NCBI GenBank assembly: GCA_964354105.1
Contig: CAYGXM010000005.1
Location: 1 to 59,360 of the forward strand
Direction: 5' to 3'
DNA length: 59,360 nucleotides
Source of the DNA: Candidatus Woesearchaeota archaeon
GTDB lineage: Archaea > Nanobdellota > Nanobdellia > UBA10117
Numbering within the stretch: the stretch's first letter is position 1; each line of letters begins with the position of its first letter. Of the stretch, positions 3,778 through 58,363 are shown one piece after another. Below the pieces are notes generated by a model that searched no databases, was not told the DNA's origin, and worked only from the letters and a program-made list of their open reading frames with translations. The translations under genes and the position numbers were made by a program.

Positions 3778-4873
3778 CTTCCTGAAGAAAGCGTTCAAAG
3801 GATTTTCTGATAGAGTTAGCAAGCCAGAAGCGCCCAAAACAGAAGCTGAAGAGAAAAAGCCTATTGAGAAAGTTGAAGCTCTCAGGGAAGAAAAACTTAT
3901 TCCTGCTAAAGTTAAAGTGGCAGAGCTAAAACTTCCTGAAGAGATTCCCTTAGAAAAACCAAAAGTTCTCAGAAAGTTAGAACAAAAGGAAAAAGAAAAA
4001 ACATTTATGCAGAGGTTAGCTGCAGTAGTTACAGAATCTAAGTTAACAGATGAGCAATTCAGCAAATTTTTCACGGATTTAGAATTGGAACTGATACAAA
4101 ATAACGTCGCTTTCCCGATTATCCAGCAATTAAGAAATAATTTGGACAAAGAGCTTGTTGGAAAATCAATGCCAAGGGCGCAGATAACTGAAAAAATCAA
4201 AGATATTTTGAGAGATACAATCCTGCATATTTTAGAAACACCCAAACCATTAGATATTTTAGAGTTAGCGAGAGAAAAGAAATCCAAAAATGAAGCCCTT
4301 GTTTTGATGTTTGTTGGCACGAACGGCCACGGAAAGACAACAACTCTTGCGAAACTTACAAATTTATTCCAGAAACATAATTACAAATGCATTCTCGCAG
4401 CTTCAGATACTTTCAGGGCGGCATCAATTGAGCAATTAGAGCATCACGCCAACAAATTAAGTGTAAGGATGATTAAACACAAATACGGCGCAGACCCCGC
4501 TGCTGTAGCATTTGATGCTGTCAAGGCTAAAGACAAGGACATCGTTTTGATTGATACTGCTGGAAGGCAAACACCGGATGCAAATCTGATGGAAGAGATG
4601 GCTAAAATCAAGAGGGTTGCCAAGCCAGACATTACTATTTTTGTAGGAGAATCAATTGCGGGCTCTGATTTAGTAGAGCAGGCGAGGGCATTTAATGAAA
4701 AGATTGGCATAGATGGCATAATTCTTACAAAAGCGGATGTTGATGATAAGGGCGGAGCCTTGTTGTCAGTTGTGCAGGCAACAAACAAACCTATTATGTT
4801 CATAGGAACAGGCCAGAATTATGACGACATAGAGAAGTTCGAGCCTGAGAAGTTTATTAGCAAGATTCTTTAA
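3770..4873 (+). CDS. ftsY: SRP receptor FtsY
   Basis: GTNGHGKTTT, DTFRAAS, DTAGR, TKAD, GTGQ motifs. Confidence 0.97.
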   Translation: MFDFLKKAFKGFSDRVSKPEAPKTEAEEKKPIEKVEALREEKLIPAKVKVAELKLPEEIPLEKPKVLRKLEQKEKEKTFMQRLAAVVTESKLTDEQFSKFFTDLELELIQNNVAFPIIQQLRNNLDKELVGKSMPRAQITEKIKDILRDTILHILETPKPLDILELAREKKSKNEALVLMFVGTNGHGKTTTLAKLTNLFQKHNYKCILAASDTFRAASIEQLEHHANKLSVRMIKHKYGADPAAVAFDAVKAKDKDIVLIDTAGRQTPDANLMEEMAKIKRVAKPDITIFVGESIAGSDLVEQARAFNEKIGIDGIILTKADVDDKGGALLSVVQATNKPIMFIGTGQNYDDIEKFEPEKFISKIL

Positions 4874-4911
4874 CAGATATGCTTTTTAAATCCCTAAATT
4901 AGTGTCTAGAT

Positions 4912-6255
4912 ATGCTAGACAACTTAGGCGAATCCCTCAAGGATAGCTTGAGAAAGCTGTTGAAAATTTCCCTTGTAGATAGAAAGCTTGTTGACGAATT
5001 GGCTGTAGACATAAAGAAATCTCTTCTGGCAGGAGATGTAAACCCTCCGCTTGCAACAAAAATCACTGAATCAATCAAAAAAAGAGCTTTGGAGGAAAAA
5101 CCAAAAGCTGGCTTGACTCATAGAGAGCATGTCATTAACATTGTTTATGAAGAGCTTGTTAAATTATTGGGAGCAGAGCCTGGAAAATTTGAAATCAAAG
5201 AGAAACCAACTAGGATTTTGCTTATCGGCCTTTTTGGCTCTGGAAAGACAACAACAGCTGCAAAGCTTGCAAAACTTTTCAAGAAACAAGGACAGAAAGT
5301 TTGCCTTGTGCAGACTGATACCTGGAGGCCTGCAGCTTATGAGCAATTAAAGCAGCTTTCTGAAAAATTAAATGTTCCATTCTATGGAATAAAAGAAGAG
5401 AAAGATCCAATTAAAATCATAAAGAAATTCGAGCCTGACTTTTCCAGATTTAATGTTATAATTATTGATTCCGCAGGCAGAGATGCTTTGAGTTCAGAAC
5501 TAACCGCAGAGCTGAAAAAATTAAATGAAATCATAAAGCCTCATGAAAAACTTCTTGTGTTATCCGGTGATATTGGCCAGGCTGCAAAAACACAGGCCAA
5601 AGCTTTCCAGGATTCAGTTGGCATTTCAGGAGTAATAATAACAAAACTCGATGGAACTGCCAAAGGCGGAGGTGCTTTGTCTGCTTGTGCAGAAACAAAT
5701 GCTAAGGTAAAATTCATTGGAACAGGCGAACACGTAGATGATTTTGAAGATTACGAACCAAAACGTTTCGTATCTCGTTTGTTAGGTTTAGGAGATCTTC
5801 AGACATTATTATCAAAAGCTGAAGAAGCAATAAAGAAGGAAGAAGCAGAAGCTCTTGCTAAGAAATTCATCAAAGCAGAATTCACTTTTGATGATTTGAT
5901 GAAGCAGATGGAAGCCCTTCAGAAAATGGGGCCTCTGAAGCAGGTGATGTCTATGATTCCGGGAATGGGCATGGCCAAGTTGCCTGAAGAATTGCTGAAT
6001 GTGCAGGAAGGAAAGATGAAATCCTGGAGACATATCATTCAATCAATGACAAAGCAGGAAAGAGATAATCCTGATTTGATTGATGCCTCTCGTGTTAAAA
6101 GAATTGCAAAAGGCTCTGGCAAATCAGAGGCAGATGTTAGGGATTTAATGAAACAATATGCCCAGATGAAGAAAATGATGAAAATGATGGGCAACCAGAA
6201 GCAGATGCAAAAGCTCCAGAAGATGTTAGGCGGTAAAATGCCTATGGGCTTTTAG
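4912..6255 (+). CDS. srp54: signal recognition particle protein SRP54
   Basis: GLFGSGKTTT, DSAGR, TKLDGTAKGGGALS, Met-rich M domain. Confidence 0.98.
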   Translation: MLDNLGESLKDSLRKLLKISLVDRKLVDELAVDIKKSLLAGDVNPPLATKITESIKKRALEEKPKAGLTHREHVINIVYEELVKLLGAEPGKFEIKEKPTRILLIGLFGSGKTTTAAKLAKLFKKQGQKVCLVQTDTWRPAAYEQLKQLSEKLNVPFYGIKEEKDPIKIIKKFEPDFSRFNVIIIDSAGRDALSSELTAELKKLNEIIKPHEKLLVLSGDIGQAAKTQAKAFQDSVGISGVIITKLDGTAKGGGALSACAETNAKVKFIGTGEHVDDFEDYEPKRFVSRLLGLGDLQTLLSKAEEAIKKEEAEALAKKFIKAEFTFDDLMKQMEALQKMGPLKQVMSMIPGMGMAKLPEELLNVQEGKMKSWRHIIQSMTKQERDNPDLIDASRVKRIAKGSGKSEADVRDLMKQYAQMKKMMKMMGNQKQMQKLQKMLGGKMPMGF

Positions 6256-30317: not shown

Positions 30318-30592
30318 TGGCGAGCTAGTCTGCCCGGCCAGGGAGCGGGTGTTACAGTAAATTCCCTTTAGACTGAGACGAAGCTTTGAGAGCGGCTGCT
30401 TATGCAGTTAGCTGTCCTAGTGTATGGCGTCGAAGTACAGTCTCTATGGACGTCAAGATTAGGAAACTCCGTTAGATCCGGAAGGAAGCAGCGGTAACTT
30501 AGTTTTGGTGTGCTATAGTTCAATTGTATGGAGCTTTCATTGGGGTAAAACAGTTAGTTGTTAAGTAAGTCCACCACAGGGCCTGCTCGCCA
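30318..30592 (+). ncRNA. signal recognition particle (7S) RNA
   Basis: Helix 8 signature TTAGATCC-GGAA-GGAAGCAGC; terminal helix TGGCGAGC...GCTCGCCA; ~275 nt; TATA box upstream. Confidence 0.92.
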
Positions 30593-31114: not shown

Positions 31115-31242
31115 GCCGAGATGGCCCAACCTGGTATAAAACGAAATTGGCGAATTTCGCTAATTTCCTTACAGGAAAAGGCGAAGGATTGCTAATCCTT
31201 TTTCCCGCAAGGGATTTGTGGGTTCAAATCCCACTCTCGGCG
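31115..31242 (+). tRNA. tRNA-Ser(GCT) with 42-nt D-loop intron (31136-31177)
   Basis: GCCGAGA/TCTCGGC acceptor, AAGGA-TT-GCT-AA-TCCTT anticodon arm, long variable arm; BHB CCTG/CAGG with GT|A and AA|A bulges. Confidence 0.92.
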
Positions 31243-32113: not shown

Positions 32114-32553
32114 AAGCTTACTTAACTTGGGGAATTGGTTATGGGAAAAGCCGAGAGCTTGCCGAGATAAATGCACAAGCTGATGCAAATCTTGACAAAA
32201 TCAAGATTGGCAAGCTTACAAAATTAGAAATTCCTAAATGCGAAGTTGTTGAAAACAAGAAAGCCTTGCTGGAATTAAAAGGAAGTTTCTTTGGAATTGT
32301 ACTGCAAAACTGCAAGAAAGGTGAAGTTGCAGCATCTTTAGTTCTAGGATTAACTGAAGAAAAAATAATAATTGGGCATGGAAAAGCTGGCGGCCTGGTA
32401 AAAGCTGAAAGGGAAGCTGAATTTGAAGTCAAAAAGGCAATTCAGGAACAGAAATTAGCTCTTGATGGTATTGATTATCACATAGCCGCAGATGCGCCAG
32501 CTAAGAAAGATACATTTGGCTGTGCAATTGTTGCTTTAATTCTAGTTGAATAG
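32110..32553 (+). CDS. pyruvoyl-dependent arginine decarboxylase homologue, probably inactive
   Basis: Aligns by eye with PvlArgDC (G..YG...A...A..ANL; FGCAIVAL), but the Ser-Ser cleavage site reads LTK. Confidence 0.65.
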   Translation: MKAYLTWGIGYGKSRELAEINAQADANLDKIKIGKLTKLEIPKCEVVENKKALLELKGSFFGIVLQNCKKGEVAASLVLGLTEEKIIIGHGKAGGLVKAEREAEFEVKKAIQEQKLALDGIDYHIAADAPAKKDTFGCAIVALILVE

Positions 32554-32590
32554 AAAGGCTTTATAATTGATTTTTAGAGCTTAAACTTAC

Positions 32591-32741
32591 GGGACGGTAG
32601 CTCAGCCTGGGAGAGCACACGACTGAAGATCCCAGAGCAGACATCGTGGGGAATCTATCAGCTATCGCTGATAAGTCCACAATCGGGTGTTCAAAATTGA
32701 GAAGTCACTTTGGCTTCCCACAGAAATTCACCCCCGTCCCA
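32591..32741 (+). tRNA. tRNA-Phe(GAA) with three introns (32629-32642, 32652-32682, 32696-32727)
   Basis: Removing the three segments gives a canonical cloverleaf: GGGACGG/CCGTCCC, CACGA-CTGAAGA-TCGTG, GGGTC, GGGTG-TTCAAAT-CACCC. Confidence 0.88.
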
Positions 32742-33447
32742 TATCTAATGCCAAATTAATTTTGCTTAAATTTCGTTGATTATTAGATCCTATCAATTCC
32801 ATCCATCTCCTTAGATTTTTCCAGCCTGAAATGTAAATCGAAGATCCAATACTTGTAAAACCGCGCTTATCTTTAGTAACAACATCATACGCAACGTAAA
32901 AATAAAATCCTAATTCTCGCAGTAATCTCTCTATTTGTTTAATTGCTTGCTTACTTTTTTGGTTTATCTTAATAACAGGATAGCCATGATTATAAGTTTT
33001 TAGCGATACGCAGCCATCAGTATCAAAAATTCCTCGTAAATATGCGCGCGATAAATCCGTATTGTTTAAAATAATATTTGGAATAGACCAATTTGTTTTT
33101 CGTCCAATATTAACACCTAAACTTTCTAAGTAATATACGATGCCTTTTGAACGAAATTGGATATGAATAGTATTCTGGCCTTTATGTTCGCCTATTTTCA
33201 GGCTAACATTAAACAAATTTTTCAAGAGTGGCAATAAAATATTTTGAAAATATTCTCTATCTTTTTTAGAATTACCACTTATGCCAATCATATGTTCAAT
33301 ACTGCCACTGTGATGCGCATATCGCAACACATATCCATCACCAGCCAATACGCCTAAAAATTCAGCTAATTTTCCATCTACAGATTTAGGTAATTTAATA
33401 CCGCGTTTTACATCCTTACGACTAAAATATTTGAACACTTCTTTCAT
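32728..33447 (-). CDS. free-standing LAGLIDADG (intein-type DOD) homing endonuclease
   Basis: LAEFLGVLAGDG and YLRGIFDTDG motifs; no intein splicing domains. Confidence 0.9.
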   Translation of the reverse strand: MKEVFKYFSRKDVKRGIKLPKSVDGKLAEFLGVLAGDGYVLRYAHHSGSIEHMIGISGNSKKDREYFQNILLPLLKNLFNVSLKIGEHKGQNTIHIQFRSKGIVYYLESLGVNIGRKTNWSIPNIILNNTDLSRAYLRGIFDTDGCVSLKTYNHGYPVIKINQKSKQAIKQIERLLRELGFYFYVAYDVVTKDKRGFTSIGSSIYISGWKNLRRWMELIGSNNQRNLSKINLALDMGRG

Positions 33448-58125: not shown

Positions 58126-58236
58126 CGGGCCCGGGATGATTTGAACACCCGTTAGACGCTGGTTGCACAGCAAGCTCCGCAAACGAAGTTTGCCCTACCG
58201 CAAGCGCCTGTCCTATCCAAGCTAGACGACGAGCCC
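58126..58236 (-). tRNA. tRNA-Arg(GCG) with 37-nt intron at 37/38 (58161-58197)
   Basis: GGGCTCG/CGGGCCC acceptor; GGCGC-TTGCGG|A-GCGTC; BHB helix TTGC/GCAA. Confidence 0.92.
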
Positions 58237-58275: not shown

Positions 58276-58363
58276 AGCCCTATCGTCCAGCGGTCAAGGA
58301 TACAAGCCTCTGGTTATAGCAAAGAGAAAGCTTGGGACACCGGTTCGAATCCGGTTAGGGCTA
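58276..58363 (+). tRNA. tRNA-Gln(CTG) with 15-nt intron at 37/38 (58314-58328)
   Basis: A1-U72 acceptor AGCCCTA/TAGGGCT; CAAGC-CTCTGG|A-GCTTG; BHB helix CTCT/AGAG. Confidence 0.93.

Follow-up and report, generated by a model that had tools for sequence, protein, structure and literature searches.

The window analyzed here, a stretch of 59,360 nucleotides (nt), is contig C5 of the metagenome-assembled genome of a Candidatus Woesearchaeota archaeon (assembly GCA_964354105.1; 723 kb in 14 contigs, 87% complete, 39% G+C), a small-genome DPANN archaeon of the class Nanoarchaeia. On its forward strand, positions 32591-32741 hold a locus for a phenylalanine transfer RNA, tRNA-Phe(GAA), made of four exons (38, 9, 13, and 14 nt) and three inserts (14, 31, and 32 nt). 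This locus is very probably a functional gene, the only one of its kind in the assembly, whose three introns would be spliced by proteins. The genome under study is designated G000 and its sister genome G001; similar handles denote other related genomes. The elements of the locus are the following, all on the forward strand:

32552-32567, forward strand: putative archaeal promoter, with a purine-rich element resembling the B recognition element (BRE), AGAAAGGC, followed by a TATA box, TTTATAAT
32591-32628, forward strand: exon 1, tRNA positions 1-37 including 17a, with the 5' strand of the acceptor stem, the D arm (G15, G18, G19, G20), the 5' strand of the anticodon stem, and the loop CUGAAG with the anticodon GAA and G37
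32629-32642, forward strand: intron 1, 14 nt, at the canonical site 37/38, AUCCCAGAGCAGAC
32643-32651, forward strand: exon 2, positions 38-46, AUCGUGGGG, with A38, the 3' strand of the anticodon stem, and G44-G46; same in G001
32652-32682, forward strand: intron 2, 31 nt, in the variable loop at site 46/47, AAUCUAUCAGCUAUCGCUGAUAAGUCCACAA
32683-32695, forward strand: exon 3, positions 47-59, UCGGGUGUUCAAA, with U47, C48, the 5' strand of the T stem, and T-loop positions 54-59
32696-32727, forward strand: intron 3, 32 nt, in the T loop at site 59/60, AUUGAGAAGUCACUUUGGCUUCCCACAGAAAU
32728-32741, forward strand: exon 4, positions 60-73, UCACCCCCGUCCCA, with U60, the 3' strands of the T and acceptor stems, and the discriminator A73; same in G001

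A tRNA-Phe gene in four exons

The locus reads GGGACGG UA GCUC AGCCUGGGA GAGC A CACGA CUGAAG (14 nt) A UCGUG GGG (31 nt) UC GGGUG UUCAAA (32 nt) U CACCC CCGUCCC A, and removal of the three inserts is expected to create the junctions CTGAAG-ATCGTGGGG-TCGGGTGTTCAAA-TCACCC. The terminal CCA is not encoded in the gene. Inserts of 14, 31, and 32 nt at 37/38, 46/47, and 59/60 had been proposed from the sequence alone, and all their coordinates and lengths proved exact. Once joined, the exons form a molecule of 74 nt whose minimum-energy fold is the canonical cloverleaf (-30.8 kcal/mol) and which ARAGORN recognizes as tRNA-Phe(GAA), in agreement with the cloverleaf and the identity that the sequence-only reading had put forward. 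Indeed, the anticodon GAA, the pair G15:C48, and residues G18, G19, G20, G37, and A73 are all present in the joined sequence, G20 and A73 being identity elements of tRNA-Phe. The unspliced locus was reported as a tRNA neither by ARAGORN, with or without its intron mode, nor by Rfam, at the gathering score as well as at E values up to 10.

Other types of interrupted genes were considered. The four exons are collinear and all lie inside 151 nt, unlike those of a split or permuted tRNA gene. Self-splicing introns of group I or II were rejected since inserts of 14-32 nt are far too short and gave no Rfam match at E values up to 10. A C/D-box small RNA within intron 2 was also discarded: its sole support was a 17-nt partial match to sR28 (E = 1.7) that corresponds to the hairpin only, and the C box is absent.

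Upstream of the gene, the TATA box starts 31 nt before tRNA position 1 and is centered about 27 nt before it. The promoter block AGAAAGGCTTTATAA is found unchanged ahead of tRNA-Phe in G000 and in G010 and G003, which belong to other genera, and the spacer that follows the block diverges. This suggests that the BRE/TATA block acts as a promoter for tRNA-Phe.

Splicing motifs were evaluated with the geometry of the bulge-helix-bulge (BHB), in which the cut falls two nucleotides 3' of each strand of a 4-bp central helix, within a 3-nt bulge; both hBHBh' and the relaxed classes hBH and HBh', with at least one flanking helix, were accepted. BHB-like ends had been noticed in the earlier reading, and a relaxed motif was indeed found at each of the three inserts (arrows below mark the cuts). 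In intron 1, the exon-side helix is the anticodon stem (5 bp), the bulges are AG↓A on the 5' side and AC↓A on the 3' side, and the central helix pairs C32-U33-G34 with CAG (3 bp plus A.G), beyond which come a 2-bp helix and a triloop. The motif of intron 2 (HBh') comprises a central helix of 4 bp between G41-U42-G43-G44 and CCAC, bulges GG↓A and AA↓U, and an intron hairpin of 10 bp. In intron 3 (hBH), the T stem (5 bp) provides the exon-side helix, the 3' bulge is AU↓U, and U54-U55-C56 pairs with GAA (3 bp plus an A.A mismatch). The helices GUGG/CCAC and UUC/GAA that had been named for introns 2 and 3 are thus both found. Each intron has one well-formed half of the motif, on the exon side for introns 1 and 3 and on the intron side for intron 2. 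Cuts placed mechanically according to the BHB geometry restore the variable loop NNGTC and the T loop TTCAAAT that are conserved in relatives. Shuffled introns matched the observed BHB quality with P = 0.003 for intron 1, 0.007 for intron 2, and 0.06 for intron 3. Stronger evidence than these shuffle tests comes from orthologues in independently assembled genomes, where the same exons occur with and without inserts.

A pattern for the 5' half of tRNA-Phe matched 36 of 61 related genomes, and additional patterns located the gene in G010 and G001. The introns of tRNA-Phe are distributed as follows:

G015, G012, G005, and most of the order and class: none
G011, G025, G047: one, at 37/38
G017: one, at 59/60
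G003 and G031: two, at 37/38 (11 nt in G003) and 59/60
G010: three, at 28/29, 37/38 (14 nt), and 46/47 (31 nt)
G001 (5' end lost at a contig end): at least three, namely 28/29-like (anticodon stem, 5' strand), 46/47 (32 nt), and 59/60 (38 nt); site 37/38 is empty

Four sites (28/29, 37/38, 46/47, and 59/60) are thus in use within the family, and three of them are occupied in each of G000, G010, and G001. The introns appear to be evolutionarily labile passengers, different genomes keeping different subsets of the four sites. The intron at about 28/29, in the 5' strand of the anticodon stem, was seen at positions 1-141 of locus L054 in G001 and in locus L038 of G010 (22 nt, TTAGCCAAAAGCTAAGCTCAAA); G000 is devoid of it. 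A hypothetical genome having all four tRNA-Phe sites occupied would exceed the published maximum of three introns. A scan of public collections with the pattern exon 1/intron 1/exon 2 retrieved nine loci (three by chance) and no further orthologue of the 46/47 intron. Synteny, followed through the upstream metallophosphoesterase, showed no conserved neighborhood among family members. The search for paralogues of the three introns in the genome by blastn-short gave none, so that a recent intron transposition inside the genome was rejected.

The exons are far more stable than the introns. Between G000 and G001, the exons are identical at 46/46 comparable bases, and introns 2 and 3 are 67 and 58% identical, respectively. 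Among all tRNA-Phe orthologues the exons are identical or nearly so, and the acceptor and T stems change only by compensatory pairs. In the three orthologues of intron 2 (G000, G001, and G010), no change affects the CCAC strand, the two bulges, or the first A:U pair in the helix of the intron, and the distal hairpin has been swapped for different, compensated sequences. Moreover, G46-U47-C48 and UUCAAAU, which the predicted junctions rebuild, represent the state found in nearly all relatives. As far as comparison can tell, this pattern of conservation is that of a selected, expressed gene with spliced passengers, and not that of a pseudogene or of an assembly artefact.

A decaying pseudogene, with disabling inserts and a working tRNA-Phe hidden in the unassembled 13% of the genome, is very unlikely. 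Although the assembly is only 87% complete and all three BHB motifs are imperfect, the exons are free of defects, the cloverleaf and the identity elements are intact, and the exons have remained the same as in G001 whereas the introns diverged. A conserved promoter and an intron 2 splice motif kept by compensatory change in three genomes also argue against decay, as does the fact that the independently assembled G001 and G010 too carry only multi-intron versions of the gene.

Partial removal of the inserts, with the 46/47 insert kept as an enlarged variable arm or the 59/60 insert kept in the T loop of an oversized mature tRNA, is highly improbable. The hairpin of intron 2 does occupy the place of a type-II variable arm, and the exon-side half of its BHB is missing. 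However, the conserved parts of this insert are the CCAC strand and the bulge AA↓U and not the hairpin, and splicing here would yield a variable loop of 5 nt and a T loop of 7 nt whose sequences match those in the tRNA-Phe of most relatives. A T loop of 39 nt would in addition break T54-A58 and the contacts with the D loop. Finally, chimeric joins mimicking inserts could be conceived in a metagenome-assembled genome of 14 contigs, but such an assembly or binning artefact has virtually no chance of being the explanation, as the gene is embedded some 32 kb deep in a contig of 59 kb and homologous inserts occupy the same sites in the independently assembled G001, G010, G003, G017, and G031.

The reading as a functional tRNA-Phe gene with three spliced introns also called for a search for another tRNA-Phe gene. 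None was found in the 87%-complete assembly, where the pattern for the 5' half occurs once; in particular, the intronless copy that the sequence-only reading had named as a counterargument is absent from this assembled part. Two loci labeled Phe by ARAGORN in its intron mode were rejected: C8:15095-15217 is a type-II tRNA-Leu(GAG) with an intron at 37/38 (long variable arm, A73, loop UUGAGG), and C1:99991-100112 is a tRNA-Val(GAC) with a D-arm intron and an intact anticodon arm, CCUGC-UUGACGU-GCAGG. Standard annotation of the genome would list zero tRNA-Phe, and recognition of this gene supplies a component that seemed missing from the translation apparatus of a genome-reduced archaeon.

Splicing enzymes and order of intron removal

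The tRNA splicing endonuclease EndA is encoded at C4:60680-61354 on the reverse strand. The protein of 225 amino acids (PF02778 and PF01974, E = 3e-27) contains one N-terminal domain (residues 53-121) and one catalytic domain (residues 131-217). Its catalytic residues Y161/H171/K202 are invariant among the 17 enzymes of the order and class that were aligned with those of M. jannaschii and N. equitans, and its nearest structural relatives by sequence are the alpha subunit of N. equitans (3IEY_A) and the alpha4 enzyme of M. jannaschii (1A79). A tblastn search of the genome at E values up to 100 gave no credible second (beta) subunit, and the protein, with one domain of each kind, is not a three-unit fusion. 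Among related genomes, 37/41 presented an EndA match, with a single gene in each, the exceptions being fragments at contig ends (G008, G014) and, in the 66%-complete G037, what may be a second full-length copy. The N-terminus of the enzyme bears an extension of about 50 residues rich in Lys and Glu (MGKKHKHKEKPE...), which can be aligned in G003, G008, G009, G010, and G016 and partly in G004, G006, and G007, and is missing from the remaining EndAs of the order.

The ligase RtcB was found at C6:4341-5677 on the reverse strand (528 bits). Its match comes in two parts, profile positions 23-426 at 4341-5585 and 1-26 at 5600-5677, separated by 14 nt and a TAA stop, which could be due to a mini-intron or to a frameshift near the 5' end of the gene.

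With these elements, we infer that the BRE/TATA promoter of the gene itself would drive transcription of a tRNA-Phe precursor of about 151 nt with three BHB-type introns. The single alpha-type EndA, presumably a homotetramer, would cut within the 3-nt bulges, two nucleotides beyond the 3' end of each strand of the central helix, and the precursor would switch conformation between the cleavages of introns 1 and 2. RtcB would then ligate the four exons to yield the 74-nt tRNA, to which CCA would be added later.

The conformational switch follows from competition between two motifs. G41-G43 can pair either with C29-C27, in the anticodon stem that serves as exon-side helix of intron 1, or with CAC of intron 2, in its central helix. 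Both motifs need these nucleotides, and the BHBs of introns 1 and 2 can therefore not be fully formed together, which makes a switch of the precursor between the two cleavages necessary in the folding model. Constrained folds of the precursor gave -52.7 kcal/mol with the anticodon stem and the intron 1 helix, and -50.9 kcal/mol for the alternative in which the intron 2 helix coexists with an intact D arm. The unconstrained minimum was -57.8 kcal/mol and contains the intron 2 helix, intron 1 (UCCCAG) being paired with the D loop (CUGGGA). The conformers in the constrained folds are about 2-5 kcal/mol apart in models that ignore proteins and tertiary contacts; departure of intron 2 first would be slightly favored by such folding, from which the direction of the switch cannot be deduced. 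An ordered splicing had been suggested in the sequence-only reading on the grounds that the intron 2 helix borrows nucleotides of the anticodon stem. The helix does use G41-G44, of which G41-G43 are shared with this stem, but an obligatory order was not borne out and only the conformational switch stands. On the evolutionary scale, introns 1 and 2 are independent, since G001 has no intron 1 and G003, G011, and G031 have no intron 2.

A side observation concerns the same region. The stretch UCCCAG of intron 1 (32630-32635) is perfectly complementary to CUGGGA of the D loop (32607-32612). Intron 1 of G010 (CCAGG) can likewise pair with its D loop (CCUGG) in a shifted register, and this may be due to chance or reflect a role in folding.

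Several points weigh against this reading of the gene and its processing. Only relaxed BHB motifs are present, a strict hBHBh' being found at none of the introns; intron 2 has no exon-side helix (C40.C48), and the 5' cut of intron 3 falls in a 5x2 internal loop that precedes the hairpin of the intron itself. Cleavage of relaxed BHBs is held to need one of the EndA loops L1-L3, and the alpha4 enzymes of DPANN carry L3 (PMC5829648), a model that the present lineage fits only imperfectly. Broad specificity is attributed in the literature to (alpha-beta)2 enzymes with CSL/L1, to epsilon2 enzymes with ASL/L2, and to DPANN alpha enzymes with L3, CSL and ASL being extra loops of the N-terminal domain with a conserved lysine. 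This lysine-rich insert was described in the EndA of N. equitans and ARMAN-2 (PMC3239211) and later renamed L3 (PMC5829648). L3, which in N. equitans alpha adds 6 residues to the C-terminal domain between the catalytic Tyr and His, is missing from the EndA of this genome and from 16 relatives, which align there with M. jannaschii without gaps. At the site of the Crenarchaea-specific loop (CSL), the enzyme is 10 residues shorter than P. aerophilum alpha. Finally, at 87% completeness, a second tRNA-Phe gene or a second EndA subunit may have been missed, although a single EndA gene is the rule in the 37 related genomes with a match.

In all members of the order, the CSL site is occupied by a conserved HG(V/I)KEKR segment that exceeds its M. 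jannaschii counterpart by 3 residues; one of its lysines may or may not take the role of the CSL lysine. The single alpha-type EndA may handle these introns, perhaps aided by the KEKR segment. A broader proposal is that, throughout this order, one homotetramer-type EndA without CSL, ASL, or L3 processes all relaxed hBH and HBh' introns (in D arm, variable loop, and T loop), the short conserved K-E-K-R insert standing instead at the CSL position. We regard this as tentative and rather doubtful. If true, it would represent an independent, minimal route to broad EndA specificity, alongside a very fast turnover of introns (four sites in one family).

Comparison with known multi-intron tRNA genes

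Archaeal tRNA genes are known to carry "up to three introns," as in tRNA-Glu of P. calidifontis and tRNA-Pro of P. islandicum (Kanai 2015, PMC4390854), and multiple-intron tRNA genes as well as incomplete tRNA sets have already been reported in DPANN genomes (Kaneta et al. 2018, PMC5829648). The statement of the sequence-only reading that triple-intron tRNAs are rare and known chiefly from Thermoproteales thus agrees with the literature (PMC4390854), to which the multi-intron genes of DPANN have to be added (PMC5829648). Since multi-intron archaeal tRNA genes are already known, what is worth keeping here is the use of three of four sites, the half-motif offered by the T loop (see below), the mutually exclusive motifs, and the EndA without the known specificity loops.

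The three-intron genes of Thermoproteales, Pyrobaculum calidifontis tRNA-Glu(UUC) and P. islandicum tRNA-Pro(UGG) (Sugahara 2008 per PMC4390854), are similar in being collinear, with three short introns of which one is at 37/38 and the others are non-canonical, in their BHB or relaxed BHB motifs, and in being missed by standard tRNA finders. On the contrary, the present gene belongs to a member of the DPANN class Nanoarchaeia, whose genome measures about 0.7 Mb (39% G+C), and not to a hyperthermophilic crenarchaeon, and it is associated with a single alpha-type EndA whereas Thermoproteales have an (alpha-beta)2 heterotetramer with the Crenarchaea-specific loop. It also differs from their transposed intron families, as no intron paralogues were found in this genome.

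The DPANN with an alpha4-type L3 EndA (PMC5829648) offer a closer parallel, with a single alpha-type enzyme, many non-canonical or multiple introns, and a tRNA set that standard predictors find incomplete. Unlike these enzymes, the EndA studied here has no L3 insert and presents the HG(V/I)KEKR segment at the place of the CSL. The finding supports the published suspicion that "missing" DPANN tRNAs are hidden multi-intron genes. In eukaryotes, a nuclear tRNA gene with three ectopic introns, one of them in the T arm, likewise exhibits BHB-like junctions; it is cut by the eukaryotic endonuclease and has no evolutionary link with the present gene.

Taken as a set, the tRNA-Phe orthologues, with zero to three introns at four sites, stable exons, fast introns, and two exclusive motifs, constitute a compact natural experiment. 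They may help to follow how introns are gained and lost, in which order they are spliced, and which substrates an alpha-type endonuclease devoid of the known specificity loops really accepts.

Homing endonuclease and other disrupted tRNA genes

An intact LAGLIDADG homing-endonuclease gene (239 amino acids; PF14528, E = 1.4e-13) lies at window positions 32728-33447 on the reverse strand, convergent with tRNA-Phe. Exon 4, read on the opposite strand, supplies its last four codons and its TGA stop, and the gene ends exactly at the border between intron 3 and exon 4. In G001, an RFC-like gene (70% identical) ends 10 nt past tRNA-Phe with no endonuclease gene in between. This arrangement indicates that the LAGLIDADG gene entered G000 as an insertion of about 738 nt, at a time when introns 2 and 3 were already in place. 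The possibility that it carried the T-loop intron to this place was rejected, as the sister genome has the introns at 46/47 and 59/60 without the endonuclease gene. All four LAGLIDADG paralogues of G000 abut tRNA genes (Phe, Tyr, initiator Met, and Arg(TCG)).

Other disrupted tRNA genes of the genome were sought by a scan for signatures of the acceptor stem and T arm followed by reading by eye, which provides a partial census. Inserts at 59/60 with a clear motif were identified in at least four other tRNA genes, and a further case is less clear:

C1:97313-97469, reverse strand: initiator tRNA-Met, T-loop insert at 59/60, clear motif
C3:77468-77684, reverse strand: tRNA gene, T-loop insert at 59/60, clear motif
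C4:9469-9664, forward strand: tRNA gene, T-loop insert at 59/60, clear motif
C12:2024-2148, reverse strand: tRNA gene, T-loop insert at 59/60, clear motif
C3:27701-27861, forward strand: tRNA-Tyr, T-loop insert at or near 59/60, motif register ambiguous

Most of these share a common design, with the T stem, a bulge NN↓U60, and U54-U55-C56(-R57) paired with GAA, GGA, or UGAA of the intron tail. Considering the 59/60 introns examined in the genome and in the tRNA-Phe of relatives, three or four central pairs were present in 8/10. U54-U55-C56 is universal, and half of the motif is thus on offer in any tRNA, which may be the reason why the 59/60 site recurs.

The initiator tRNA-Met is the closest counterpart of tRNA-Phe in the same genome. 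It also has three inserts, its 59/60 intron uses the T stem, an AU↓U bulge, and a UUCA/UGGA helix, and it is also met at its 3' end by a convergent LAGLIDADG gene. It differs from tRNA-Phe by its other intron sites (D loop and 43/44 region) and by the full 4 bp of its central helix.

Additional RNA genes were noticed in the window. A type-II tRNA-Ser(GCT) with a large D-loop insert lies at 31115-31242 on the forward strand; it is mistaken for Arg(GCG) by ARAGORN and scores only 22 bits with Rfam. At 58276-58363, on the forward strand, a tRNA-Gln(CUG) has a 14-nt intron at 37/38 (CUCUGG↓UUAUAGCAAAGAGA↓A), and the call "Pyl(cta)" made by ARAGORN in its intron mode is wrong. A further intron-containing tRNA gene is located at 58126-58236 on the reverse strand, opposite to that of tRNA-Gln(CUG). 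Finally, the best Rfam match of positions 30435-30532 on the forward strand is the 97-nt model of the bacterial small signal recognition particle (SRP) RNA and not the archaeal SRP model, with 45.3 bits, barely above the cut-off; this match may correspond to the S domain alone of a longer, or reduced, archaeal SRP RNA.

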